This document shows positions 6,818 through 23,362 of a DNA stretch of 24,000 nucleotides, one piece after another. This DNA comes from Acidimicrobiia bacterium (lineage in GTDB: Bacteria > Actinomycetota > Acidimicrobiia > Spongiisociales > ZC4RG35). Numbering within the stretch: the first letter of the stretch is position 1; every line of letters starts with the position of its first letter. The stretch covers positions 1 through 24,000 of the forward strand of contig JBAVPF010000549.1 in assembly GCA_049692815.1 (NCBI GenBank), in the 5' to 3' direction. Made by a program: the position numbers and the translations under genes. Below the pieces are notes generated by a model. It was not told the origin of the DNA and searched no databases. It saw only the letters and a list, made by a program, of their open reading frames with translations.

Positions 6818-6927
6818 GGGGCCGAGCCGCGCCCCGGATGATGGAAACCCAGGATGAAAGGCCACCCCCGGGCTGTCGACGGCCCGAGTCGACGTGCCGG
6901 CAACTAGCCTCGCACGCCAGCCACCAC

Positions 6928-7923
6928 ATGACCGCAACCCAATTCTCCGAGATCGAGCTGGCACTGACCGCCGCCGCCCTCAATGGCGATCCAGCCGGGC
7001 TGTATCGCCTCGCCACCGGGCTCATGGATGAAGGCGTTGCTTTCGACACGCTTCTGTTCGACTACTTGTTCCCCGCCGAGCGTGAAGTCGGCCGCCGCTG
7101 GCAGCAAGGCGACTACCTGGTGGCAGAGGAGCACGCCGCCACCGCGGCCGTCGAGACCGTGATCTCACTGCTGAGTGGCATGCTGGATCAGCCGACCAGC
7201 GCAACTCATGTCGTGGTGGCCGCGGCGGAAGGGGACGAGCACTCGCTGCCCGGGCGTGCCGTGGCCGCATACCTCCTCTTTCTCGGCTACAGGACGACGT
7301 TTCTCGGCGGCAGCATGCCGGCAGCGGACCTCCGGGACTTCCTGGAAGCGGAGCGGCCCGAGGCCCTCGTGCTCTCCTGCGCCATCACCAGTCATCTCGT
7401 CGGGGCTCGTTCGATGGTCGCCGCCGCCCACGCCGTCGACGTTCCCGTTGTTGTCGGTGGCAATGCCTTCGGGCCCGAGGGCCGCTGGGCAGAGGTCACC
7501 GGTGCAGATGCCTGGGTCTCCTCGCCCCTCGAGCTGCCGACGGTGATCGATCGATGGGCCGATCCGGGCATCGCGGAACTGAAGGGGGCAGGCGAACTTC
7601 CCTCCGGCCTCGTCGAAGTCATCTCGCACCGTTCCGAGATCGTCGCCCGCACCGAGACAGCCCTCGAGCGGGAGGAATCAGCGCCGGCCGCCACCACCTA
7701 TCACGACGCAGCGCGCATTCTGCTTGGAGCCGTGGAAGCGTCTCTACTCGTCGCCGATCACGAGCCGGCACTCGAGATGATTCGCTGGCTGATGAGCGCT
7801 GCGCCCGCCCGTGGGATCGACGGCGACGAGGTGGTCACCGCCCTCCTCGGAGTCCTCGAGGGGTCCTGGCTCGAGGCTCATGACATGCTGGGCGCTGCCG
7901 TGCGCGAAATGAACTCTCGATAG
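6928..7923 (+). CDS. Cobalamin (B12)-binding domain protein, CarH/LitR-like sensor module without a DNA-binding domain, with an unrecognised ~120-aa helical C-terminal extension
   Basis: B12-binding_2 helical-bundle signature VGRRWQQGDYLVAEEHAATAAVETVI. It is followed by a Rossmann-like B12-binding domain (HVVVAAAEGDEHSLPGRAVAAYLLFLGYRTTFLGGSMP...ALVLSCAITSH...VPVVVGGNAF). No MerR-type HTH at the N-terminus. I prefer ATG 6928 to the track's 6838. Confidence 0.75.
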   Translation: MTATQFSEIELALTAAALNGDPAGLYRLATGLMDEGVAFDTLLFDYLFPAEREVGRRWQQGDYLVAEEHAATAAVETVISLLSGMLDQPTSATHVVVAAAEGDEHSLPGRAVAAYLLFLGYRTTFLGGSMPAADLRDFLEAERPEALVLSCAITSHLVGARSMVAAAHAVDVPVVVGGNAFGPEGRWAEVTGADAWVSSPLELPTVIDRWADPGIAELKGAGELPSGLVEVISHRSEIVARTETALEREESAPAATTYHDAARILLGAVEASLLVADHEPALEMIRWLMSAAPARGIDGDEVVTALLGVLEGSWLEAHDMLGAAVREMNSR

Positions 7924-7959
7924 TCATCCAATCGCGGCAGCGGGTACGAACATACCCAT

Positions 7960-8715
7960 GTGACTGAGAACAAATCGACCCGCCTACGCACCTACAACGT
8001 CGTCATGGGATTGCTCCATGCCGCCCAGGCCATTGCCGTGATAGTCCTCGCCAACGACTTCACCTTGCCCGTGACCGGGACCTTCCTCACCGGCCCGCCC
8101 GGAGTTGGTTCCCCGGAGGTCACCGTCATCGGCAACCTCAGCGTCGCCTGGGGAGTCGCCATCTTCCTCTTCCTGTCTGCGGCAGCTCACCTGATCATCG
8201 CCACACCCGGCGTCTTCGGCTGGTACGAGCGCCAACTCAGCACAAATCGCAACTATGCCCGTTGGGTCGAGTACTCCCTCTCCTCTTCCGTGATGGTGGT
8301 CCTGATCGCCATGCTCGTGGGCATATTCGATGTCGCCGCTCTGCTCGGCCTGGCCGGCGTGAACGCCTCGATGATCCTCTTCGGCCTACTCCAGGAGAAA
8401 TACGAGACGCCCGGAAAGGACGTCAGTTGGACGGCCTACTGGTTCGGCGTGATCGCCGGTGCGGTCCCCTGGGTCGCCATCGGCCTCTACCTGATCGGAC
8501 CCGGCGTCGAGACCAACCCGCCCGGCTTCGTGTACGGCATCTTCTTCTCCCTGTTCGTCTTCTTCAACGTGTTCGCCGTCGTGATGGTGCTCCAATACAA
8601 GAAGGTGGGGCCGTGGGCCCGCTACCGATTCGGTGAGAGCACCTACGTGCTGCTCAGTCTCATTGCCAAGTCGGCTCTGGCCTGGCAGGTGTTCGGCGGG
8701 ACGCTCGCTGTCTGA
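7960..8715 (+). CDS. Heliorhodopsin (inverted-topology microbial rhodopsin)
   Basis: Seven hydrophobic helices, and near-colinear similarity to heliorhodopsin 48C12 as I recall it. Matching blocks: LANDFTLPVTGTFLTGPPG, RWVEYSLSSSVMVVLIA (counterion Glu), GVNASMILFGLLQEKY, PGFVYGIFFSLFVFFN, LQYK, and the retinal Schiff-base Lys in SLIAKSALAWQVFGGTL. Conserved His residues in GLLHAAQ and SAAAHLII. GTG start 36 nt after the upstream gene. Confidence 0.9.
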   Translation: MTENKSTRLRTYNVVMGLLHAAQAIAVIVLANDFTLPVTGTFLTGPPGVGSPEVTVIGNLSVAWGVAIFLFLSAAAHLIIATPGVFGWYERQLSTNRNYARWVEYSLSSSVMVVLIAMLVGIFDVAALLGLAGVNASMILFGLLQEKYETPGKDVSWTAYWFGVIAGAVPWVAIGLYLIGPGVETNPPGFVYGIFFSLFVFFNVFAVVMVLQYKKVGPWARYRFGESTYVLLSLIAKSALAWQVFGGTLAV

Positions 8716-9842: not shown

Positions 9843-11480
9843 GTGACCCAATACGGTGCTACCTCGGTGAGAGTCACAGCCGGGCACGATTCGGGATCCG
9901 CACCCTGGTGGCAGACCGCCGTCGTCTACCAGATCTACCCGCGTTCCTTCGCCGACGGGAACGACGACGGGGTCGGCGACCTCCGCGGCATCGTCGACCG
10001 CCTGGACTACGTGGAGCGCCTGGGTGTCGACGCCATCTGGCTCTCGCCCATCTTCCGCTCGCCGATGGCCGACTTCGGGTATGACGTGTCCGACTACGAG
10101 AGCATCGATCCCCTCTTCGGGGAACTGGCCGACTTCGAAGAGCTCCTGGCCGGGGCGCACGCCAGAGGCATACGGGTCTTCCTCGACCTGGTCCCCAACC
10201 ACACTTCCGACGAGCATCCGTGGTTCATCGAGTCGAGATCGTCCCGTGACGGCCCGAAGAGAGACTGGTACATCTGGCACGACCCGGGCCCCGACGGTCT
10301 GCCCAACAACTGGGAGAGCTTCTTCGGTGGCCCTGCCTGGGAGCTCGACGAGACGACCGGCCAGTACTACCTGCACCTCTTCCATCGCAAGCAGCCGGAT
10401 CTCAACTGGCGCAACCGCCAGGTCAGAGCCGCCATCTATGAGGTGATGCGGTACTGGCTCGACCGTGGCGTGGACGGATTTCGGATCGACGTCCTCTGGC
10501 TGCTGCTCAAGGACGAGGAGTTTGCGGACGACCCCGAGCAGCCGCCGCTGACGGGCCCCGAGTTGGTGTACGGGCGCTTCCGCCCAGGATGTGAAGACCG
10601 GCCCGGCATACAGGAGATCGTCGCCGAGATGAGACAGGTCGCCGACGGGTATGACGAGCGGGTGCTGATCGGGGAGATCTACCTACCGGTCGATCGACTC
10701 GTCCGCTATTACGGAGAGGAGCTCACCGGCATCCACTTGCCATTCAACTTCGGGCTGGTGACTCTGCCCACCTGGAGCGCCACGGCCATCCGCGACCTCG
10801 TCGAGGCCTACGAGGCGGCCCTACCCGCCGGCGCCTGGCCCAACTGGGTACTGGGAAATCACGATCAGCCCCGGATCACCACGAGGGTGGGACAGGAGAG
10901 ATCCAGGGCAGCCCAGATGCTGTTGTTGACACTTCGCGGCACCCCGACCTGCTACTACGGCGACGAGCTGGGCATGCCCGACTCCGTCATAGCCGAGGAG
11001 GTGGCGCTCGACCCCCAGATCGAGGCGGGTCGCTCCCGGGACGGGGCGCGTACGCCCATGCAATGGGACGCCGGCGCCGGTGCCGGATTCACCTCGGCGG
11101 GCTCAACGCCCTGGCTGCCCGTCGACCCGTCGTATACGACCATCAATGTCGCCGCCCAAGAGGCCGACCCCCGGTCCACGCTCGCCTTCTTCCGGCGGCT
11201 GACCCATCTGAGAAGGGAGCGCCCCGGGTTGACGGTTGGCTCCATCTCCTTCGTCGATTCACACCACGAAGACGTGCTGAGCTACCTCAGGGAGTGGGAG
11301 GGGGCCCGCATCCTCGTCGTCCTCAACTTCGGGAAGCAGCCGGCCACGGTGGACCTCACCGAGGTCTCAACCGGGGGCCTGATCCTCTGTGCGACCGATA
11401 TGACTCGGGAAGGCAGGGTCGAGCTCGCCCGTGTAGCTCTCCAGCCGGGCCAGGGCCTCGTCATCGACATCCGCGACTAG
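9843..11480 (+). CDS. GH13 alpha-glucosidase / oligo-1,6-glucosidase family
   Basis: WWQTAVVYQIYPRSFADGNDDGVGDLRGI opening. GH13 conserved regions DLVPNH (I), GFRIDV (II, nucleophile Asp), IGEI (III, acid/base Glu), LGNHDQPR (IV). GTG start. Confidence 0.9.
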   Translation: MTQYGATSVRVTAGHDSGSAPWWQTAVVYQIYPRSFADGNDDGVGDLRGIVDRLDYVERLGVDAIWLSPIFRSPMADFGYDVSDYESIDPLFGELADFEELLAGAHARGIRVFLDLVPNHTSDEHPWFIESRSSRDGPKRDWYIWHDPGPDGLPNNWESFFGGPAWELDETTGQYYLHLFHRKQPDLNWRNRQVRAAIYEVMRYWLDRGVDGFRIDVLWLLLKDEEFADDPEQPPLTGPELVYGRFRPGCEDRPGIQEIVAEMRQVADGYDERVLIGEIYLPVDRLVRYYGEELTGIHLPFNFGLVTLPTWSATAIRDLVEAYEAALPAGAWPNWVLGNHDQPRITTRVGQERSRAAQMLLLTLRGTPTCYYGDELGMPDSVIAEEVALDPQIEAGRSRDGARTPMQWDAGAGAGFTSAGSTPWLPVDPSYTTINVAAQEADPRSTLAFFRRLTHLRRERPGLTVGSISFVDSHHEDVLSYLREWEGARILVVLNFGKQPATVDLTEVSTGGLILCATDMTREGRVELARVALQPGQGLVIDIRD

Positions 11481-12160: not shown

Positions 12161-12186
12161 CGGGGCCCCGACTGCCCGGGGCCCCG
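12161..12186 (-). terminator. GC-rich hairpin downstream of the secreted-paralogue gene (terminator candidate)
   Basis: CGGGGCCCC-gactgccc-GGGGCCCCG: 9-bp perfect stem, 8-nt loop, 24 nt beyond the stop codon at 12210. No clear U-tract. The sequence also reads as a 13-nt direct repeat (cggggccccgact twice). Confidence 0.4.
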
Positions 12187-12209: not shown

Positions 12210-13094
12210 TCAGTCGGTGTGGACGAACTCGAACACCTGGTGGTGGTCGTGTTGGTCACCCACCCAGACCTCGAAGACGTCGCCCACCGGGGCTCCTTCG
12301 AAGTACACCTTGATCTCCCATTCCCCGTTCTCGCCGACTTCCGTCGTCTGCCTGCCGAACGGAGACTCGACAACGATGGTGTAGCCGGGATGGGCCTTGC
12401 CGTAGAACACGTCGTATGGCGGGTTCTCGCTGCACTCACCGTATGCCTGGTGTGCCACGAACTCCCACTCCTGCGCGGGCTCTTCCTTGGGCTCTTCCTT
12501 CTTCGGCTCTTCTTTCTTCGGCTCCTCGGCCTTGGGCTCTTCCTTCTTCGGCTCCTCGGCCTTGGGCTCTTCCTTCTTGGGCTTCTCCGGGATGTCGACC
12601 ACCACGGTGACGCTGTCTGACGCGTCGTTGCCCGCCTCGTCGATCGCCTTCGCCGTGACGAGGTGCTCGCCCTCGTCGAACTCGAGGACGATGCGCCAGG
12701 AGCCATCGTCTTTCACGTCTGCCTGACGCTCACCGAAGTACACCTTGGCTCCGGGCTCCGTCGTGCCCTCGAAGACCACCTCGTGCTTCCCGAACACCTG
12801 GCCGTCTCCCGGGTAGAGGATCTCGATCGTCGGTGGGTTGTGATCACCGGGCTCGTACGGGACGTATTCGTCCGGCTCTTCCCAGATCACTTCCTCTTTC
12901 TCGACCTCGTCGACCTCGACCGTGCGCTCAGGCTCAGCCTTCTCCTCGATCGTGGTGGTCGTCGCCTCGACCTTCAACGTGGTCCCGGTCGCGACCTCGT
13001 CGTCGGCGACCTTCTCCGGCCCCGTCATGGCCAGGGCGGTTCCGGCAACGGCTACAACCGCCACCGTTGCGAGCAATGCGAGCCATCTGCGCAT
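12210..13094 (-). CDS. Secreted protein: signal peptide, acidic linker, Ig-like domain, (K/A)KEEP repeat linker, conserved unnamed C-terminal domain; paralogue of the 13752-14663 product
   Basis: Signal peptide MRRWLALLATVAVVAVAGTALA|M with AAGGAG RBS 6 nt upstream of ATG 13094 (preferred over the track's 13151). Ig-like block VVFEGTTEPGAKVYFGERQADVKDDGSWRIVLEFDEGEHLVTAKAIDEAGNDASDSVTVVV. The C-terminal 83 aa align with the neighbour's C-terminus. Confidence 0.75.
   Translation of the reverse strand: MRRWLALLATVAVVAVAGTALAMTGPEKVADDEVATGTTLKVEATTTTIEEKAEPERTVEVDEVEKEEVIWEEPDEYVPYEPGDHNPPTIEILYPGDGQVFGKHEVVFEGTTEPGAKVYFGERQADVKDDGSWRIVLEFDEGEHLVTAKAIDEAGNDASDSVTVVVDIPEKPKKEEPKAEEPKKEEPKAEEPKKEEPKKEEPKEEPAQEWEFVAHQAYGECSENPPYDVFYGKAHPGYTIVVESPFGRQTTEVGENGEWEIKVYFEGAPVGDVFEVWVGDQHDHHQVFEFVHTD
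12479..12590. repeat. In-frame tandem repeat, about seven copies of a 15-nt unit (two exact 30-nt copies), encoding a K(K/A)EEP linker
   Basis: cttgggctcttccttcttcggctcctcggc occurs back-to-back (12531-12560, then a near copy from 12561), with degenerate 15-nt units on both sides. It translates on the minus strand to KPKKEEPKAEEPKKEEPKAEEPKKEEPKKEEPKEEP. Confidence 0.8.
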
Positions 13095-13141
13095 CTGACA
13101 CTCCTTGTCTGATGTTCCGGTCTCCCAAGCCCGTCCCGCCG

Positions 13142-13171
13142 TAACACGCACGAAGGGGCGGTGAGGTTTAC
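13142..13171 (-). promoter_or_regulatory. ECF-type promoter candidate driving the secreted paralogue
   Basis: Minus strand reads GTAAACC-tcaccgccccttcgtg-CGTGTTA (-35 AAC motif, 16-nt spacer after the C, CGT -10 motif), about 45 nt upstream of ATG 13094. Confidence 0.4.
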
Positions 13172-13182
13172 GAGTAGCTCAG

Positions 13183-13212
13183 GTAAACCCGAACGGCTGC
13201 CGATGCGAGTGA
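13183..13212 (+). promoter_or_regulatory. ECF-type promoter candidate driving the sigma / membrane-protein operon (would give a leaderless or near-leaderless mRNA)
   Basis: Plus strand reads GTAAACC-cgaacggctgccgatg-CGAGTGA, with the same geometry as the mirror-image site at 13142-13171. The -10-like element ends 5 nt before the GTG at 13217. Confidence 0.4.
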
Positions 13213-13216
13213 TGTC

Positions 13217-13762
13217 GTGACCGCAGAAACCAAGCCCGAACCGGTCCCTCGGGACGAGGAGTTGGACATCAGTCATGAGTCTTTCGAGAGCTTCTACCGC
13301 AGGGAGTTCAGAGAAGTGGTCGGGCTCGCCTATGCACTTTCAGGGAGCCGGCTCGGTGCCGAGGACCTTGCGCAGGAGGCGTTCATCGCCGCCCATCAGC
13401 GTTGGGACCGGATCAGTGGTTACGACAAGCCCGGGGCATGGGTTCGACGTGTCGTGTCGAACAAGGCGGTCTCGGCATTCCGCAAGAGGGCCGCAGAGGC
13501 CAAGGCAATGACCCGTCTGGCAGGTCAACGTCACCAGCCCCTGCCGGAGATGGAACCGGAGGACGAGGAGTTCTGGCGGATGGTGCGTCGCCTGCCCAAC
13601 CGACAGGCACAGGCGATCGCTCTCTTCTACATCGAGGATCGGTCCGTGATCGAGATAGCCGACATCCTCGACTGCAGTCCTTCCACTGCAAAGGTCCACC
13701 TCTTTCGTGGCCGCCAGGCGTTGGCCGAAAAGCTGGGTCTGGAGGTGACCGATGAGTCGTGA
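13217..13762 (+). CDS. ECF (group 4) sigma-70 family RNA polymerase sigma factor
   Basis: Region 2 (FYRREFREVVGLAYALSGSRLGAEDLAQEAFIAAHQRWDRISGYDKPGAWVRRVVSNKAVSAFR) and region 4 (NRQAQAIALFYIEDRSVIEIADILDCSPSTAKVHLFRGRQALAEKL). GTG start at 13217; an in-frame TTG at 13259 is an alternative. Confidence 0.85.
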   Translation: MTAETKPEPVPRDEELDISHESFESFYRREFREVVGLAYALSGSRLGAEDLAQEAFIAAHQRWDRISGYDKPGAWVRRVVSNKAVSAFRKRAAEAKAMTRLAGQRHQPLPEMEPEDEEFWRMVRRLPNRQAQAIALFYIEDRSVIEIADILDCSPSTAKVHLFRGRQALAEKLGLEVTDES

Positions 13763-14663
13763 CCTCGATACCCGTGCGCGGCGGGCCGCTTCCAACCTGC
13801 GCGATTCCATGTCGGACGCCCAGCTCAGCTCGGTCCAGCCCGGGGCGCCGAGACGACGCCGCGCACTGATCGCCGTATTGCGCCCGGCATGGGTGGTGGC
13901 CCTTCTGCTCGTGGGATCCGCAGTCGGCCTGGCAATGGTGCTCGACTCTCCACCTGCGGCGACCCCGACGACCGAGGCTCCGGTGACGAGCACGACCGTC
14001 GTGGTCACGACAACCGCCGCACCGACGGTCACCAGCGAGCCTGCTCCGCCCACCACGGCGGCTGTGGTGCCCGTCGCACCGACGACGACGGAAGCTGGTG
14101 ACACAGAGCCTCCGCCACTCGCGATCACCTCACCGGAGAACGGCGCCGAGTTCGAGAAGAAGACGATCACCTTCGCCGGCACCACCGAGCCGGGAGCACG
14201 GGTTTTCGCCGGGAAGTACGAAGCCGATGTCGACGGCGAGGGCAACTGGCACATCGCGCTGATCCTCGGCGAGGGGAAGAACGTCGCCAGGTTCGTGGCC
14301 CGAGACCAGGCCGGGAACGAGGCCGAGGCTTCGGTGACCGTCTACTACGTCGCCCCCACCACGACGACCACGAAGCCGGAGACTCCCACCACCGAGAAGG
14401 AGTTGGCGGCATTCACCGCCAACCAGAGCTACGGGTCCTGCTCGGAAACCCCGCCGTATGACGTGTTCTACGGGAAGGGTGAGCCGGGGTCCTGGGTCGA
14501 TATCACCTCCGAGTACGGATCGGCAGAGCTTCAGGTGGGAGAGAATGGCCAGTGGGAAAAGAAGGTGTATTTCGAAACGGCCCCTGCCGGGACGCCTTTC
14601 GGTGTGCGGATCGCCGACCAGTACGGGCGGGTCCTCGAGTTCCAATTCGTCTACACCCCCTGA
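13752..14663 (+). CDS. Single-pass membrane protein translationally coupled to the ECF sigma (anti-sigma candidate): short cytoplasmic N-terminus, TM, PT-rich linker, Ig-like domain, TT-rich linker, conserved unnamed C-terminal domain
   Basis: ATG 13752 overlaps the sigma stop (13760-13762) by 11 nt. TM segment ALIAVLRPAWVVALLLVGSAVGLAMVL. Ig-like block ITFAGTTEPGARVFAGKYEADVDGEGNWHIALILGEGKNVARFVARDQAGNEAEASVTVYY. C-terminal domain FTANQSYGSCSETPPYDVFYGK...VGENGQWEKKVYFETAP. No recognisable zf-HC2 or other anti-sigma domain. Confidence 0.75.
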   Translation: MSRDLDTRARRAASNLRDSMSDAQLSSVQPGAPRRRRALIAVLRPAWVVALLLVGSAVGLAMVLDSPPAATPTTEAPVTSTTVVVTTTAAPTVTSEPAPPTTAAVVPVAPTTTEAGDTEPPPLAITSPENGAEFEKKTITFAGTTEPGARVFAGKYEADVDGEGNWHIALILGEGKNVARFVARDQAGNEAEASVTVYYVAPTTTTTKPETPTTEKELAAFTANQSYGSCSETPPYDVFYGKGEPGSWVDITSEYGSAELQVGENGQWEKKVYFETAPAGTPFGVRIADQYGRVLEFQFVYTP

Positions 14664-14747: not shown

Positions 14748-17036
14748 CTATTCGCTCAGAAGCCTCGGCGGCTCGTGGGAGCGCACCGGAGGTGCCGGCC
14801 CGGCGAACCGTTCGACTTCCACGAGACAGGTTTGAGCAGTTGGCCCCTGGGCAAGTGAGGACGTACCCATGTCTCTGGTGAGGACGTTCGGATTCCCCGC
14901 CCTGTCAATGCCCCCCGGCTCGGTGGGATCCCACCAGGCCCCTGTGGGGAGCTGGACCACACCTCTCATCAGGTCTTCCCGGATGGCGACCGCCGCCAGC
15001 GTCGCTCCCCGATCGTTGAAAACCCTCACCAGATCGCCATGCACCAGATCCCGGTCGGAAGCGTCTTCGGGGCTCATCCCGATCTGCTCTCTCCCATCGA
15101 CCTTGCCTCTGAGGCTGATCTCCCCGTGGTCCCACTGGGAGTGGAGACGGGTCTTGGGCTGATTCGAGATCATGTGTAGCTGACCGTCTCTTGCGTTGCC
15201 GAGCCACTCGGCGGGCTCCAGCCACGAAGGGTGGGGAGGGCAGTCGTCGAGACCGAAGCTCTCGATGGTGTCCGAATACAGCTCGATCCGACCCGATGGT
15301 GTCTTCAGAGGCGCACCGCCAGGGTCCTGGCGGAAGGCAGCCACCTGTGACGGGACCGGCGGATACCACTCGGCCGGGATCTGGAAATGGCCGGCGTCCT
15401 TCAGCTCTCCCAGCGTTGGGAAGTCCGGGTGCGACTCGTGAAATCTGCCGTAGAGGTGCTCGAGCCACTCGGTGACCGACCGGCCCTCGGTGAATGACTC
15501 ACCCGAGCCGAGTCGAGCAGCCAGCTCGGAGAAGATGTCGTAGTCGTTTCTGGCTTCACCGACCGGATCGATCGCCCGCTCCATCCAGAAGATGAAGTCG
15601 TCCATGCCACTTCCGCCGATGTCCTCGCGTTCGAGGGTCGTCGTTGCCGGGAGCACCACGTCGGCATGACGGGCGAGGGCGTTCCAGAACGGCTCGTGAA
15701 CCACGATCGTGTCCGGCTGCTGCCAAGCCTGTGCCAGGCGGTTCAGGTCTTGATGGTGGTGGAACGGGTTGCCGCCTGCCCAATAGACCAGTTTGATCTC
15801 CGGATAGGTGAGACGCCGGCCGTTGTAGTCGAATTCCTCCCCGCCGTGGAGGAGGAGATCGGCGATGCGGGCGACCGGGATGAAGTCCGACACCTCGTTC
15901 CTACCCTGTCCGAGACGGGGAAGGTCGTGGTATCCGACTCCGTGCCCGTTCAGGCCGACTGCCCCGTAGCCGTAGCCGACCCCGCCACCGGGGAGACCGA
16001 CCTGGCCGAGCATCGCGGCGAGGGCCGCGGCCGCCCAGTAGGGCTGCTCGCCGTGGTCGTTTCGCTGTACCGACCAACTGACGGTGATCAAGGTCCGATT
16101 CCGGGCCATATCCGCCGCCAGTGAGCGGATTCGATCGGTGTCGACTCCGGTGATGGCGGCCGCCCACTCCGCACTCTTGGCCGTGCCGTCGCTGTCCCCC
16201 GTCAGATATGCCCGAAAGCGGTCCCACCCGTGACAGAAGTTCCGGAGGAAATCTTCATCGTGGTCGCCGGCAACCAGGAGGCTGTGAGCCAAACCGAGCA
16301 GGACGGCGGTGTCGGTGGCCGGACGGACCGGGATCCACTCCGCCTCCACCTCCTCGATCAGGTCCTCCGCCAGAGGGGAGAGATTCACGAAGCGGACACC
16401 ACGGTCGCGGCAAGTCTCCAGACGACTGGAGAGCATGTGCCGCCCCTGACCTCCATACTGGACCTGGCTGTTCTTGACCGGCATCCCTCCGAACGCCACC
16501 ACGAGCTCGGTGTGCTCGGCGATCTCGGCGAAATGCGGCATCTCGTCGACGTAGTCATCGAAAGAGATGCCGAAGATGTGTGGTGTGATGACGTGACCGG
16601 CGGCAATCGAATAGTCGTCGACCGAATAGGTGTAGCCGCCGATCGTGTTGAGGAATCGATGGATCTGGCTCTGGGCGTGATGGAATCGGCCGGCGCTGGC
16701 CCAGCCGTAGCTGCCCCCGAAGATGGCCTGGTTGCCGTATTCGGTGCGAACCCGGTCGAGCTCGGTGGCGAGCATGTCGAGGGCGACGTCCCAGTCGACT
16801 TCGACGAAGGGCTCCCAGCCGCGCCCTTCGGGATTCGACCCCGGCCCGTTGCGGTACCAGGACTCTCGTATCGAAGGCCGGGCGATTCGACTGCGTCGGA
16901 CAGCTTTTAGCGACTGACCTATCAGCGAGGGATCCGGATCCTTGGCGAACGGATGCACGGCCGTGATCTCACGACCGTCGGTCTCTACTTCGTAGGCACC
17001 CCAGTTGGTGAGGGTCCGGTGGCGGGTGGTCGTCAT
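14748..17036 (-). CDS. Cytoplasmic molybdopterin (bis-MGD) S-/N-oxide reductase, BisC / biotin- or methionine-sulfoxide reductase-like (DMSO reductase family)
   Basis: 762 aa. N-terminus TLTNWGAYEVETDGREITAVHPFAKDPDPSLIG is typical of BisC-type enzymes. No Tat signal and no N-terminal Cys cluster. Molybdopterin-binding core blocks (VVAFGGMP, YWAGGNPFHHHQD, HEPFWNALARHADVVLPATT) and a C-terminal MopB_CT-like beta-barrel (GDLVRVFNDRGA). Confidence 0.85.
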   Translation of the reverse strand: MTTTRHRTLTNWGAYEVETDGREITAVHPFAKDPDPSLIGQSLKAVRRSRIARPSIRESWYRNGPGSNPEGRGWEPFVEVDWDVALDMLATELDRVRTEYGNQAIFGGSYGWASAGRFHHAQSQIHRFLNTIGGYTYSVDDYSIAAGHVITPHIFGISFDDYVDEMPHFAEIAEHTELVVAFGGMPVKNSQVQYGGQGRHMLSSRLETCRDRGVRFVNLSPLAEDLIEEVEAEWIPVRPATDTAVLLGLAHSLLVAGDHDEDFLRNFCHGWDRFRAYLTGDSDGTAKSAEWAAAITGVDTDRIRSLAADMARNRTLITVSWSVQRNDHGEQPYWAAAALAAMLGQVGLPGGGVGYGYGAVGLNGHGVGYHDLPRLGQGRNEVSDFIPVARIADLLLHGGEEFDYNGRRLTYPEIKLVYWAGGNPFHHHQDLNRLAQAWQQPDTIVVHEPFWNALARHADVVLPATTTLEREDIGGSGMDDFIFWMERAIDPVGEARNDYDIFSELAARLGSGESFTEGRSVTEWLEHLYGRFHESHPDFPTLGELKDAGHFQIPAEWYPPVPSQVAAFRQDPGGAPLKTPSGRIELYSDTIESFGLDDCPPHPSWLEPAEWLGNARDGQLHMISNQPKTRLHSQWDHGEISLRGKVDGREQIGMSPEDASDRDLVHGDLVRVFNDRGATLAAVAIREDLMRGVVQLPTGAWWDPTEPGGIDRAGNPNVLTRDMGTSSLAQGPTAQTCLVEVERFAGPAPPVRSHEPPRLLSE

Positions 17037-18048: not shown

Positions 18049-20604
18049 TCAGAGCAGACCCTGCGACCCTGCTGACCTGACGGCTTCTTCCCGGGTGGAA
18101 GCATCCAGCTTGACGAGGACTGCCGAGACGTGATTCTCAACGGTTCGTCGTGAGAGAAAGAGTCGGTCGGCGATCTCCGGGTTGGAGAGACCTTCTCCCA
18201 GGAGTTGAAGCACCTCCGCCTGGCGTGCAGTGAGACCGGCAGCATGCTCGCGGGTGGCACGCCCCTTTCCCCGGGGAACGGCCACACCCTGGTCGCGAAG
18301 GTCCTTCCTCACTTTGGAGGCGACGGCGTGGGCGCCGAGGGAGTCGAGTATCTCGAGTGACCGGAACCGGGCTTCTCGATCTCCCCTCGTGAGGGCTACT
18401 GCCTCCTCGTATGGCATTCCCTTCTCCGCCCAGTGGGCAGCGGCAAGCTTCCACTCGCCTGCGATTGCTTGGGCATGAGGTCTGGGCAGCCCAACGGGGG
18501 CCTCCCCCAACTCTCCCAACATCCACAGCCAAGAGGCGAGGGCGCCCGACGGCCATGGGAATTCCTGAGTCAAGCCCCGCCCAACGAGCTCGCGGCACAT
18601 CTCAGCCCGATCCTTTGTCATGTTCCCGTCGAGCCAACTCTCCTCCGCCAGAGCAACCGCCACGTGCAGCAGGTAGTCGATCTCGTTGCTCTGCTCGGCT
18701 ATCTGCCAGGCGGCTCGAAGGCTCTCCCGAGCGCCCGGGCGACCGCGTCGCATCCGCAGGAGCCCTTGAATGCGTAGGAGGTGAACATCGGCGTTGGCAT
18801 GAGAACCGAGGTTCTCGGTGACCAAGTCGTCGGCCTCGCCCCACCGCCCTTTTCTCACCAACGCATCGGCGTAGACCGCGTTCGCCTCGATCTCCAGGAA
18901 GGAAAGCTCATATCTGATCGCCACTGCACGGGCACGCTGGGCCACATCCTGCTGGAGGTCCACATCGTCTTGTTCCTGTCCGGTGTAGGCGAGACTGCGC
19001 AGGGCGGTGACTTCCTCGTAGCGGTGCATTCCCACTTCGGCCCTGCGCCGGGCCTCCTCGATGAGATTGCGCCCGCCCGGGTCACCACGTACGTACTCGA
19101 GCAGACCCTTCACTACTTGAGCCTGAATGACGGCAACCTCGCTCCCGGTGGCCTCACCCATCTCGATCGCTCTCTCCACCATCTCGTCGGCACGGCGGCC
19201 CTCACCTTGGTGTATGAGGAGATCGGCATATCTGGCAAATGCTTCGGCGAGGTCGCGGCTTTCACCACCCGGCTCCAGGACGCGAATCGCTTCGACTGCA
19301 TAGGCTTCCGCCGCAGTTGTGCGGGCATGAGTCTCGTTGACCGCGACGGCCAAGGCGAGGGCCCCTGCCAGCTCACGGTCCGAGCTGTGGCCGCGGTGGA
19401 GATCTATGGCCCTGTCGAGAAGATCCACTGCCTCCGGATTTGCCAGGAAGTACTCGATCTCGCCCCACTCGGTGAGAATCCGAGCCTTCTCCCGGTCCGA
19501 CAGTCGGTCCATGTAGGGCTGGATGGCGCGGTAGTGAGCGGAGGCCTCACGATGACTGGCCACCTCGGCGGCCCTTCTCGCCGCGATCGGCGCCAACTCG
19601 ACCAACTTGTCTATATCCCCGGCTCCCACTGCGTGGTGAACCAAACGAGCCGGGTCGGTACCGTCCGGCAATACGTCCAACACCTTCTTGTGGATCCTCA
19701 CGCCCTCGCTGATGGTCAGGGAGGCCTCGATGGCCCGTCGGATCAACTCGTGGCGGAACCCGACCGTCTCACCATCCACCTCCAACAAACCGTGATGCTC
19801 ACCTTCTGAGATCCCGGCCTCGATGTCGCCGAACAGTGACTCGAGCTCGCTTCGGTTGGTCCTCTCCGGGATGACCGAGAGTTGAAGCAGAAGCGCTCTG
19901 GCCATCGAGGAAAGGCGCCCGACCCTCGCCATCACGGAGTCGCGAACCGAGGAAGGGACCTCGTCGCCGACCGACAGAGCCATCTCGGTGACGTAGAAGG
20001 GGTTGCCCTTTGTCGCTTCGAGGACCCTGTCGGCATCGAGACCCGAGTTGGACAGAATCCGGGCGACACTCAGACGGGAGAGCCCACTGAGCTCGATCCT
20101 TGTGACACTCTCCGACGGGAGTGCCCCCAGAACCGTGCGGAGAGGATGTTCGAAGTCCACTTCCTCGTTCCGATAGGTGAGCAACATCAAGGCGTTGGTT
20201 CGTGCGAAACGACGACCGACGTACTTGATTGCATCCAGGGTCGCTTCGTCCGACCAATGAGTGTCTTCCACAACGATTACGGCGGGTTGGGGCGATCCCG
20301 TGCACAGCTCGAGAAAGGCCTGCATCGCGACGTGACGATCACCCGCCTCCAGAGCCTGACGCAGCGGGACGTCCTCACGAGCCATGTCCCACAGCGGGCC
20401 GAACGGCCGTGGTGTCTGAAGATCGTCGCAGAAGCCGAGGTGGACCCGGGCCGAGTCACCAATCGAGGTGAGAAAACCCCTCACCAACGAGCTCTTGCCT
20501 ATGCCCGCCTCGCCACGGATGAGCACGACCTTGCCGCCGGAGTGGGGCAAGTCTTCGAACAGGCTGTGGAGGAGGTCGAGCTCCTCCTCCCTCTCCAGAA
20601 GCAT
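18049..20604 (-). CDS. LAL-type (large ATP-binding LuxR family) transcriptional regulator
   Basis: N-terminal AAA/STAND ATPase with Walker A GEAGIGKSSL and Walker B-like VIVVEDTHW. Long helical/TPR-like middle region. C-terminal LuxR HTH LTARQAEVLQLLGEGLSNPEIADRLFLSRRTVENHVSAVLVKL. Confidence 0.9.
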   Translation of the reverse strand: MLLEREEELDLLHSLFEDLPHSGGKVVLIRGEAGIGKSSLVRGFLTSIGDSARVHLGFCDDLQTPRPFGPLWDMAREDVPLRQALEAGDRHVAMQAFLELCTGSPQPAVIVVEDTHWSDEATLDAIKYVGRRFARTNALMLLTYRNEEVDFEHPLRTVLGALPSESVTRIELSGLSRLSVARILSNSGLDADRVLEATKGNPFYVTEMALSVGDEVPSSVRDSVMARVGRLSSMARALLLQLSVIPERTNRSELESLFGDIEAGISEGEHHGLLEVDGETVGFRHELIRRAIEASLTISEGVRIHKKVLDVLPDGTDPARLVHHAVGAGDIDKLVELAPIAARRAAEVASHREASAHYRAIQPYMDRLSDREKARILTEWGEIEYFLANPEAVDLLDRAIDLHRGHSSDRELAGALALAVAVNETHARTTAAEAYAVEAIRVLEPGGESRDLAEAFARYADLLIHQGEGRRADEMVERAIEMGEATGSEVAVIQAQVVKGLLEYVRGDPGGRNLIEEARRRAEVGMHRYEEVTALRSLAYTGQEQDDVDLQQDVAQRARAVAIRYELSFLEIEANAVYADALVRKGRWGEADDLVTENLGSHANADVHLLRIQGLLRMRRGRPGARESLRAAWQIAEQSNEIDYLLHVAVALAEESWLDGNMTKDRAEMCRELVGRGLTQEFPWPSGALASWLWMLGELGEAPVGLPRPHAQAIAGEWKLAAAHWAEKGMPYEEAVALTRGDREARFRSLEILDSLGAHAVASKVRKDLRDQGVAVPRGKGRATREHAAGLTARQAEVLQLLGEGLSNPEIADRLFLSRRTVENHVSAVLVKLDASTREEAVRSAGSQGLL

Positions 20605-21922: not shown

Positions 21923-23362
21923 ATGTTGCCCCCGGTGGCAAACCGCTCAGCCGTCCACACCCCTCCGGCCAGGGCATGGCTGAGACGCCCTGAAACCTGG
22001 GTCCTCCTCGTAGCCGTCGTCTACGCGTCGTCTCAGTTGCTCCTGCTGGACACTTCACGCTTCTTCAGTTGGGACGAAGCCATCTACACATCACAGGTGA
22101 GTCCCTTTGCCGACGCCCTCAGCATGGGTGCGCACCGGGCTCGGGGGGTGACCCTGATCGTGGCCCCGGTAGCCGCGATCACGGACTCGATGCCCGTCCT
22201 GAGGAGCTATCTCGCCTTGGTCTCGAGTGCGGGGCTGTTCGGCGCGTTCGTCGTCTGGTGTCGTTCCGTCCGTTGGGCCGCGCCCATCGCCGCCGGATTG
22301 TTCGCCACGAGTTGGATCGCTGTCTATTACGGGTCGGCCGTCTACCCGAATCTCTATTCGGCGTTGATCGCGGTGGCAGCCACCGGCATCACCTTGAGGG
22401 TCGACACATCAGAGAGTCGCACCACGCTTTTCGTGTTGGGCGGGGTGATGACGGTCGGGATGCTGGTGCGTCCCACGGAGGCGGTGATCGTCGCCGTCTG
22501 CGTCGTTGCTGTGGCCTTCTTCGAGGCGCGTCCCCGGATCGTCGCCATTTGCGTCGCCAGTCTCGGCGGCCTGACGGTCGGAGCGCTGCCGTGGCTGGCC
22601 GAAGCATGGATTCGGTTCGAGGGACCCCTGCAGCGTCTGCATGCAGCAAGCGCAGCAGTCGGTGGTGGCCTGCGGAGCAACGTTCTCGACTACCTGCACA
22701 CCTTGGATGGGTCGGCCGGTCCGATAAACCGTTGGGCGCTACTCGACTTCGGTCTCCTGCTCCTGCTGGGGATGGCCGGGCTGTTTCGAAGGGAGCCGAA
22801 GATGCGGCGAATGGCCGGAATCGTCATGGCCTCGGCCGCTCTCCTCGTCTCCCCATATCTATTCGCCACCGAGCCGATCGCAGATCGTTTCATGCTCCCC
22901 GGGTACGGGATGCTCTGTCTTGGGTCGGCCCTGGGGGTAACGGCCATCTCGCACGCACTCGAGAGAACGGGGCTGGCCACGATCGTCCTCGCGGCGTCGG
23001 TGCTACTCATCGGCGCCTGGAACTACCCGGCTCTCAAAGCCTGGGATGACCGTCAGGTGGGAAACGCCGACACCGCTCTCACATTGGGAGAGGCGGTCGA
23101 AGCTCGGTCCGGTTCGGACGATTGCTTCTTCCTGAGCCCTTTCAACTACCCGGCGATCTCATTCGCCTCCGGATGCCGGGGAGGGCCATTGGCTGACAGC
23201 GCCACCGCGAACCAGGCCCGGGTCGAGGCGGCGGGTGCAGACCGAATGATCCTTGCCCTGACGCCCGAGCCCGACGTCCTCGGGATTCTCGGGGCGGGTT
23301 GGCGTTGCGACCCGATACCTGCCCTCGCAGTCAAAGGTTGGCAGATCTGTTCCCGCTCCTGA
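21923..23362 (+). CDS. Polytopic membrane protein, probable GT-C-fold glycosyltransferase (ArnT / PMT / GT39-83-like)
   Basis: About 10 or more hydrophobic helices. First extracytoplasmic loop carries FFSWDEAIYTSQ (Asp-Glu motif typical of GT-C enzymes). Soluble C-terminal domain. Family assignment is from motif and topology only. Confidence 0.55.
   Translation: MLPPVANRSAVHTPPARAWLRRPETWVLLVAVVYASSQLLLLDTSRFFSWDEAIYTSQVSPFADALSMGAHRARGVTLIVAPVAAITDSMPVLRSYLALVSSAGLFGAFVVWCRSVRWAAPIAAGLFATSWIAVYYGSAVYPNLYSALIAVAATGITLRVDTSESRTTLFVLGGVMTVGMLVRPTEAVIVAVCVVAVAFFEARPRIVAICVASLGGLTVGALPWLAEAWIRFEGPLQRLHAASAAVGGGLRSNVLDYLHTLDGSAGPINRWALLDFGLLLLLGMAGLFRREPKMRRMAGIVMASAALLVSPYLFATEPIADRFMLPGYGMLCLGSALGVTAISHALERTGLATIVLAASVLLIGAWNYPALKAWDDRQVGNADTALTLGEAVEARSGSDDCFFLSPFNYPAISFASGCRGGPLADSATANQARVEAAGADRMILALTPEPDVLGILGAGWRCDPIPALAVKGWQICSRS

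Follow-up and report, generated by a model that had tools for sequence, protein, structure and literature searches.

Our study revealed a compact three-gene module in a 24,000-nucleotide (nt) stretch of Acidimicrobiia DNA (contig JBAVPF010000549.1; hereafter the window), in which the gene for an extracytoplasmic function (ECF) sigma factor overlaps a gene for a single-pass membrane protein (M) and stands divergently from a gene for a secreted paralogue of that protein (S), the whole feature region spanning 12210-14663. M and S carry the same two all-beta domains, an immunoglobulin-like (Ig-like) domain and a C-terminal domain (Cdom); the trio is conserved in other Acidimicrobiia, and the sigma operon and the S genes lie behind one bipartite promoter motif that is specific to them. 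The best explanation, to which we assign a probability of about 0.6, is an autoregulated ECF sigma factor with a non-canonical, short anti-sigma factor, M, and a dedicated regulon of secreted paralogues of the sensor. This estimate applies to the explanation as a whole, including the proposal of an autoregulated, self-contained ECF sigma module across the Acidimicrobiia. The evidence is solid for the anatomy and the regulon and inferential for the anti-sigma role of M.

Gene layout, conservation and promoters

The genes and promoters on which the argument depends are as follows.

12210..13094, minus strand: secreted paralogue S, 294 amino acids (aa), NCBI MGB8362865
13217..13762, plus strand: ECF sigma factor, 181 aa, with sigma-2 and sigma-4 regions only
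13752..14663, plus strand: membrane paralogue M, putative anti-sigma factor and sensor, 303 aa
13144..13170, minus strand: ECF-type promoter of S, TAAACC-N16-CGTGT, with a leader of ~40 nt that contains an AAGGAG Shine-Dalgarno sequence
13184..13210, plus strand: ECF-type autoregulatory promoter of the sigma/M operon, TAAACC-N16-CGAGT

The NCBI gene calls coincide with all three genes (MGB8362865/66/67). The start of S was placed at ATG 13094, with the AAGGAG sequence 6 nt 5' of the start codon; a start at GTG 13151 (open reading frame 12210..13151) was considered and rejected, as the AAGGAG at ATG 13094 and the NCBI call of 294 aa agree. The sigma and M genes overlap by 11 nt, and a strong GGAGG Shine-Dalgarno sequence for M sits within the 3' end of the sigma gene. 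The cytoplasmic part of M, of ~36 residues, is followed by RRRR and a single hydrophobic segment in an N-in single-pass layout, and the N-terminus of S is a Sec-type signal peptide, MRRWLALLATVAVVAVAGTALA, followed by methionine. An earlier note on this DNA, made from the sequence alone, had described a secreted paralogue, an ECF sigma and an N-in single-pass paralogue, and this architecture is borne out at the positions given above.

The sigma factor matched Sigma70_r2 (51.7 bits) and Sigma70_r4_2 (52.5 bits) in Pfam, with no further sigma regions, and passed the ECF superfamily model TIGR02937 (72.7 bits against a cut-off of 42.9), which makes it an ECF (group 4) sigma factor. Its best-scoring model was the actinobacterial/Streptomyces-type SigE family TIGR02983 at 130.1 bits, below the curated cut-off of 141.55, and the annotation pipeline PGAP labels it ‘SigE family’ although this cut-off is not reached. 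Its nearest solved relatives were SigW and mycobacterial SigE. The promoter of the sigma gene fits the pattern of ECF autoregulation, as its -35 element contains AAC and its -10 element CG(T).

Homologues all came from Acidimicrobiia-type MAGs (metagenome-assembled genomes), where they are annotated as hypothetical. A genome scan yielded 77 Acidimicrobiia loci, which were scored with hidden Markov models for the N-terminus of M, the Ig domain, the Cdom and the sigma factor. Every membrane-type gene lay directly 3' of an orthologous sigma gene (46 of 46 loci), and the divergent secreted paralogue was kept in ~28 loci, in the same layout as here. Other loci with sigma and M had no adjacent S gene, and at least seven MAGs harboured S on another contig or 19 kb away (sigma and M apart from S in the locus pairs L032/L040, L035/L058, L038/L069, L048/L074, L059/L071, L026/L073 and L042/L068). 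The number of domains varies in S, which has either one Ig and one to three Cdoms or three to four Ig and one Cdom, and is constant in M at one of each. No other conserved neighbour gene was found across the loci.

A neighbour-joining tree of the Ig domain and terminal Cdom placed M and S in two old clades, with another M as the nearest neighbour for 43 of the 44 M ectodomains and another S for 53 of the 55 S ectodomains. The distance between M and S of the same locus was 0.45-0.62, about equal to or above the median distance among M proteins. These two clades and large same-locus distances indicate an ancient duplication whose two copies have both persisted; on the same tree, a recent duplication and gene conversion were each rejected. 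Failure of the pair to be conserved with the sigma in other genomes had been named in the earlier note as a refuting outcome, and the pair proved both conserved and anciently duplicated. In two MAGs the M gene is split over contig ends, with the N-terminus and the ectodomain apart (L041 + L052 and L043 + L077), and one M ectodomain appeared ‘secreted’ in the tree because of such a split.

The aligned regions upstream of the sigma genes yielded the motif GTAAACC, 16 (rarely 17) nt, CG(A/T)GT(G/A)A. It occurs twice in the window, back to back (13184-13210 on the plus strand and 13170-13144 on the minus strand), where shuffled sequences gave an expectation of 0.00; together with the recurrence of the trio in dozens of genomes, this excludes chance. 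Across the loci, the motif precedes 47 orthologous sigma genes or operons and 50 secreted-paralogue genes, stand-alone ones included, which upholds the supposition of the earlier note that both genes are under the same promoter type. The consensus is identical for the 47 sigma and the 50 S sites, also at positions that the search did not impose, namely the G before TAAACC and the A two bases after CGWGT. Under the strict pattern, all matches in the 77 loci lie 5' of sigma or S, with none elsewhere in ~1 Mb, while a looser pattern gave 104 matches in 1.93 Mb (both strands counted), of which ~98 were directly 5' of sigma or S and ~6 were at other sites. The stand-alone S genes without a nearby sigma all carry the motif (e.g. 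in L024, L032, L035, L047, L048, L054, L056, L057, L060, L062-L064, L066-L073 and L075).

The sequence GGTTTAC-N11-GTAAACC was also considered as a palindromic operator. This was rejected, as the spacing from half to half ranges from 8 to >100 nt between genomes, and single halves were also found at stand-alone genes, counter to the operator reading. The inverted repeat is therefore best described as two divergent -35 elements, each half of which keeps 16-17 nt to its own CG(A/T)GT. The GTG start of the sigma gene lies 6 nt past the -10 element CGAGTGA (13206-13219) and L006 has ATG there, so the sigma-M mRNA is probably leaderless. As ECF sigma factors usually control their own genes, this sigma factor is likely to be the one that reads the motif. 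It would then act directly on the S genes, which, within the ~1 Mb of flanking DNA, would form its whole regulon apart from its own operon.

Domains of the membrane and secreted paralogues

The remaining features of the module are listed by coordinate.

12161..12186, minus strand: probable terminator of the S gene, a GC-rich hairpin followed by a T run
12216-12464, 12485-12587 and ~12594-12833: terminal Cdom, KEEP-repeat linker and Ig-like domain of S, which follow its signal peptide and acidic linker in the reverse of this order
13029-13094, minus strand: signal peptide of S (Sec-type), ending in TALA, then methionine
13758-13820, plus strand: cytoplasmic amphipathic helix of M
~13863-13943, plus strand: transmembrane segment of M, preceded by RRRR
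13944-14099, plus strand: PT-rich linker of M
14100-14351, plus strand: Ig-like domain of M
14409-14660, plus strand: terminal Cdom of M (85 aa)

Compared by BLASTP, S and M align along 213 aa with 40 % identity (E 2e-46); the alignment spans the Ig-like domain and the Cdom and leaves the linkers out. The statement in the earlier note that both proteins have the same two domains and differ in their linkers is thereby confirmed: the linker is PT-rich in M, whereas S has an acidic linker and a KEEP array. The latter, at 12485-12587, is a tandem DNA repeat with periods of 15/30/45 nt that encodes KEEP/PKKEE, and it explains why the 12-13 kb bin is so strongly AT-skewed. The stem of the S terminator has 11 pairs, 10 of them GC, and follows directly past the S stop at 12210.

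In both proteins, the Ig-like domain was identified as Pfam Glucodextran_B (PF09136), at 33.2 and 37.9 bits against a threshold of 27. Residues 1-66 of M and the Cdom had no family match in Pfam or NCBIfam, and proteins that consist of Cdom repeats alone had zero Pfam matches. AlphaFold2 modelling of the Ig domain and Cdom (alignment of 83 rows) returned two all-beta domains with a predicted local distance difference test (pLDDT) score >90 and a disordered linker between them, and the Cdom modelled alone gave a seven-strand sandwich with a pLDDT of 97.9. When the domain pair was searched against the PDB with Foldseek, the matches were tandem Ig/fibronectin type III (FnIII) modules of adhesins and matrix proteins at E values from 1e-7 to 3e-5, among them the Bap C region (7dm0, 1e-7), SiiE (2yn5), MpIBP (5irb), RbmA (4be5) and domain B of glucodextranase (1ug9). 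Matches of the Cdom alone to solved structures were weak, the best being the ancillary sandwich of a CE20 acetylesterase (E 8e-4, TM-score 0.61-0.64), with SiiE, neocarzinostatin-type and MG domains behind it. The two-domain module thus comprises two Ig-like sandwiches, the second from a family without a model, and the C-terminal domain shared by M and S is another Ig-like fold and not a new one.

A match to a well-characterised family with an unrelated role had also been raised in the earlier note as an outcome that would count against a sensor. The first part holds in so far as both domains have a generic Ig-like sandwich fold, which also occurs in adhesins and in the accessory modules of glycosidases. 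The second does not, as the match assigns no unrelated role, so the idea of a sensor is not refuted by it. Enzymatic partner domains were sought in 10 other Cdom proteins and none was found.

The Cdom defines an Ig-like domain family that has so far no Pfam model. When 1.84 billion proteins were searched with a profile built from two Cdom sequences, 565 representatives matched at E<=1e-3, and a single protein held as many as six repeats. Four giant repeat proteins (P0162, P0181, P0212 and P0217; 2839-7336 aa) matched profile positions 24-62 only, 12-21 times each, and because they match this part only, the Cdom core G-x-G-x-PG...G-x-W is seen to resemble generic Big-type adhesin repeats. A signature loop, YGSCSExPPYD(V)(F/Y)YG, which contains a single and almost invariant cysteine, is common to the terminal Cdoms of M and S, whereas the inner Cdoms of multi-repeat S proteins have neither the loop nor its cysteine. 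Exactly one cysteine was present in 44/47 M and 50/59 S proteins. In the window it is Cys230 of M (14439-14441), and the matching S cysteine lies at ~12420-12440. On sequence grounds, this single extracytoplasmic cysteine hints at an intermolecular disulfide or at ligand chemistry.

The membrane protein as candidate anti-sigma factor

The cytoplasmic segment of M contains a helix motif of ~20 residues, LDxRARxAAxxLxxxV. Among 44 full-length M orthologues, L5 was found in 41, D6 in 43, R8 in 36, A9 in 40, R10 in 42 and A12 in 42, position 16 was L or I in 42, and position 20 was V, I or L in 41. Mean pairwise identity within M was 45 % for the helix and 53 % for the folded domains, against 22 % for the pre-transmembrane segment, 29 % for the transmembrane segment and 22-25 % for the linkers. 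The conserved apolar residues share one helical face, and the S proteins lack the segment altogether. A profile of the helix (A7) searched against 5.8 billion proteins recovered only six short fragments.

M also has the genomic position and topology expected of an anti-sigma factor: it is the +1 gene, it overlaps the sigma gene by 11 nt with an internal GGAGG, it has an N-in single transmembrane segment, and it holds this position in all 46 loci. A class I anti-sigma domain is a four-helix cytoplasmic domain of ~80-90 aa, with HxxxCxxC in ZAS proteins. M is not a class I anti-sigma (ASDI, ZAS or RskA-type), as it has no Cys/His motif and no zf-HC2 or RskA match, and the PDB sequence-profile search with alignment A2 returned nothing below E 0.2. 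The ECF classification 2.0 lists putative anti-sigma factors at +1 in 114 of 157 ECF groups, mostly with a single transmembrane segment and mostly without a Pfam match, and describes one anti-sigma type common to the actinobacterial clade ECF222/51/38/39 (PMC7826278). The conservation of the helix, its apolar face, its absence from S, the +1 position, the translational coupling and the lack of any other conserved partner single M out as the leading candidate for a short anti-sigma factor outside class I that would bind sigma.

In the mechanism that we propose, sigma and M would be made 1:1 from one autoregulated, probably leaderless transcript with translational coupling. M would insert N-in, its 20-residue amphipathic cytoplasmic helix would sequester sigma, and its ectodomain, two Ig-like sandwiches on a PT-rich stalk, would serve as the sensor. 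A change in the state of the sensor would lead to inactivation of M, with regulated proteolysis in or close to the membrane as the most likely route, and the freed sigma would transcribe its own operon and the S gene or genes from GTAAACC-N16-CG(A/T)GT promoters. The M sensor and the S product would recognise the same partner, which may be a single ligand of the envelope or the extracellular space, or else each would recognise the other. Such a shared partner is probable because the terminal Cdom and its signature loop YGSCSExPPYD are shared, and it would tie production of S to what the S-type module binds. The nature and the direction of the signal in this mechanism are speculative.

Several points weigh against this explanation. 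The ~36-aa cytoplasmic part of M matched no anti-sigma family or solved structure in Pfam, NCBIfam or PDB profiles, in agreement with the remark in the earlier note that it holds no recognisable anti-sigma domain. The amphipathicity of the helix was modestly above that of shuffled sequences (352/5000), and in mirror-tree and partial-correlation analysis all segments of M co-varied with sigma, so that the helix was not singled out. Proteins encoded at +1 of ECF sigma genes are not all necessarily functional anti-sigma factors (PMC7826278). The regulon was assessed on the ~1 Mb of locus flanks, the carriers include no cultured host, and four or five S genes (L037, L039, L044, L053 and perhaps L034) have a different promoter.

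In this motif-less sub-clade of S, L037 carries the conserved element ATAGGYCG..WACCCAT, ~25 nt and then GATAATG (~7650-7740); L039, L044 and L053 have this other element at the same relative position, and L034 is truncated. The upstream sequences suggest a promoter swap away from ECF control.

An extension of the explanation, which takes up the decoy and feedback idea of the earlier note, is that the anti-sigma factor gauges the external product of its own regulon. Secreted S would bind the M ectodomain homotypically, possibly through the terminal Cdom and the conserved cysteine, and this would shut off or boost sigma activity; in a homeostat of this kind, M might recognise S through YGSCSExPPYD and the lone cysteine, and synthesis would be adjusted to the level of S outside the cell or on its surface. 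Such product sensing is consistent with the prediction that the sigma drives S as its dedicated output, with a signature loop and a single cysteine that are common to M and S and missing from the inner Cdoms, with the persistence of both copies after an old duplication, and with fold matches to tandem Ig/FnIII matrix proteins, RbmA among them. However, there was no concerted evolution between the M and S clades, the same-locus distance being as large as 0.45-0.62, and a common external ligand accounts for the same facts. We consider product sensing, in its decoy and its homeostat form alike, a tentative proposal, and it is a special case of the short anti-sigma explanation rather than an exclusive alternative. 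No anti-sigma factor that works by recognition of a paralogue in this way was found in the literature searched.

In the main rival reading, M has no regulatory role and is simply a membrane-tethered isoform of the output, and control of sigma is transcriptional or falls to an anti-sigma factor that is unlinked or soluble. The cytoplasmic part of M is indeed very short and without an anti-sigma domain, the ectodomains are structural, adhesin-like Ig folds, an ECF regulon with an anchored and a secreted paralogue has a precedent in Mpt83/Mpt70 under SigK (PMC7509140), and some SigE-clade ECF sigma factors have no anti-sigma and are controlled transcriptionally (PMC7826278). However, a mere anchor leaves unexplained a helix at 45 % identity with near-invariant L5, D6, A9, R10 and A12, and the strict linkage and translational coupling to sigma in 46/46 loci and the lack of any other conserved neighbour that might act as a regulator also argue against it. 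We regard this rival as unlikely.

Least probable, and in our judgement improbable, is a release coupled to secretion or processing, in which signal peptidase would cut M after GSAVGLA, freeing an S-like ectodomain and leaving a sigma-bound stub for intramembrane proteolysis: the outer end of the hydrophobic segment of M (VVALLLVGSAVGLA, then MVLDSPP) resembles the h/c-region and cleavage site of the S signal peptide (VAVVAVAGTALA, then MTGPE) and site-1 cleavage of anti-sigma factors by signal peptidase has a precedent, but the small-x-small motif is clear in the closest clade only and is not conserved in distant orthologues, and Ala-/Gly-rich ends of transmembrane segments are common in high-GC organisms. 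Signal peptidase reportedly acts at site 1 on RsiV and RsiP. The likeness between M at 13905-13952 (GSAVGLA, then MVLDSPP) and S at 13029-13060 (AGTALA, then MTGPE) may also mean that the M anchor derives from a signal peptide, or still acts as one.

Genomic context and comparison with known systems

At 6838-8715 on the plus strand, a gene with two B12-binding domains (6838-7923) lies directly 5' of a heliorhodopsin gene (7960-8715; Pfam PF18761, E 7e-100), and the two may be a light-related pair. Four further genes flank the module and are unrelated to it, namely those for a GH13 alpha-amylase-family enzyme (9843-11480, plus strand), a molybdopterin oxidoreductase (14748-17036, minus strand), a large AAA_16 and LuxR-type regulator (18049-20604, minus strand) and a polytopic membrane protein without a Pfam match (21923-23362, plus strand). 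These four genes showed no conservation alongside the sigma/M/S module in the compared loci.

Pairs of ECF sigma and anti-sigma factors are the third major mode of bacterial signalling, and most groups lack a known signal and a known anti-sigma mechanism. The module described here is very small and simple to interpret: it comprises a single sigma, a single putative sensor and a single type of promoter, and its output proteins form a family paralogous to the sensor. What is new is that the ectodomain encoded at +1 is an ancient paralogue of the predicted targets of the sigma, a link kept across a bacterial class, that the candidate sigma-binding element has only ~20 residues, and that the Cdom is an Ig-like family without a model. 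If M is an anti-sigma factor, this helix would be among the shortest sigma-binding elements and useful for synthetic ECF switches; if the sensor reads the product or the ligand of the product, the module would be a clean natural case of matched sensing through gene duplication. It also offers a first handle on surface proteins of the Acidimicrobiia, an abundant but poorly studied class.

The tandem Ig/FnIII proteins (Bap, SiiE, MpIBP, RbmA and glucodextranase) have the same fold and tandem order as the ectodomains, at 13-16 % identity, and none is linked to a sigma factor. The short class II anti-sigma factors CnrY and NepR clamp an ECF sigma with no more than a very short helical peptide in the cytoplasm; CnrY works with the periplasmic sensor CnrX and NepR is soluble. 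No sequence similarity was detected between M and either of them.

The module resembles the pairs of ECF sigma and single-pass anti-sigma factor, especially ECF38/39/51/222, in that sigma has sigma-2 and sigma-4 only, the promoter has an AAC-type -35 and a CG-type -10, the operon is predicted to be autoregulated, and the +1 gene encodes an N-in protein with a single transmembrane segment and is translationally coupled (PMC7826278). It differs from them in its cytoplasmic segment of only ~36 aa, in an ectodomain paralogous to the regulon product and in a TIGR02983 score of 130 bits that is below the cut-off. In the actinobacterial BldN-RsbN system of Streptomyces, an ECF sigma is likewise paired with a membrane anti-sigma without similarity to known anti-sigma domains; RsbN is a class III anti-sigma factor, and BldN controls few secreted surface proteins, the chaplins and rodlins (PMC6101532). 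The sigma-binding domain of RsbN is, however, much larger, and its outer part is unrelated to the chaplins.

The mycobacterial mpt83-sigK-rskA cassette resembles the module in having an ECF dyad beside a sigma-dependent surface protein, a small regulon, and an anchored and a secreted paralogue, Mpt83 and Mpt70, that arose by duplication (PMC7509140). Mpt83 is a lipoprotein distinct from the anti-sigma RskA, whereas in the present module the +1 protein is at the same time the anchored paralogue; the Mpt83/Mpt70 domains are FAS1 and those of M and S are Ig-like. Neither an RskA nor a FAS1 match was found in the module proteins with Pfam and NCBIfam, and the likeness to the SigK cassette is one of architecture only. 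In the sigma-I/RsiI systems of Clostridium thermocellum, the extracellular module of the anti-sigma factor is of the same kind as in the regulated secreted proteins, and binds the polysaccharide on which these proteins act (PMC6582324). The sensor modules of RsiI are carbohydrate-binding modules or glycoside hydrolase-like domains with known polysaccharide ligands, unlike the Ig-like domains of M, and with an ECF sigma and no RsiI_N match here, the circuit logic alone is similar: the sensor responds to whatever the product binds, as the common-ligand form of the proposed mechanism would have it. In summary, an ECF sigma factor with a probable single-pass anti-sigma factor and a tiny regulon is a known arrangement, and of its closest analogues, RsiI/sigma-I, mpt83-sigK-rskA and BldN-RsbN, each shares one aspect of the module rather than its combination of features.

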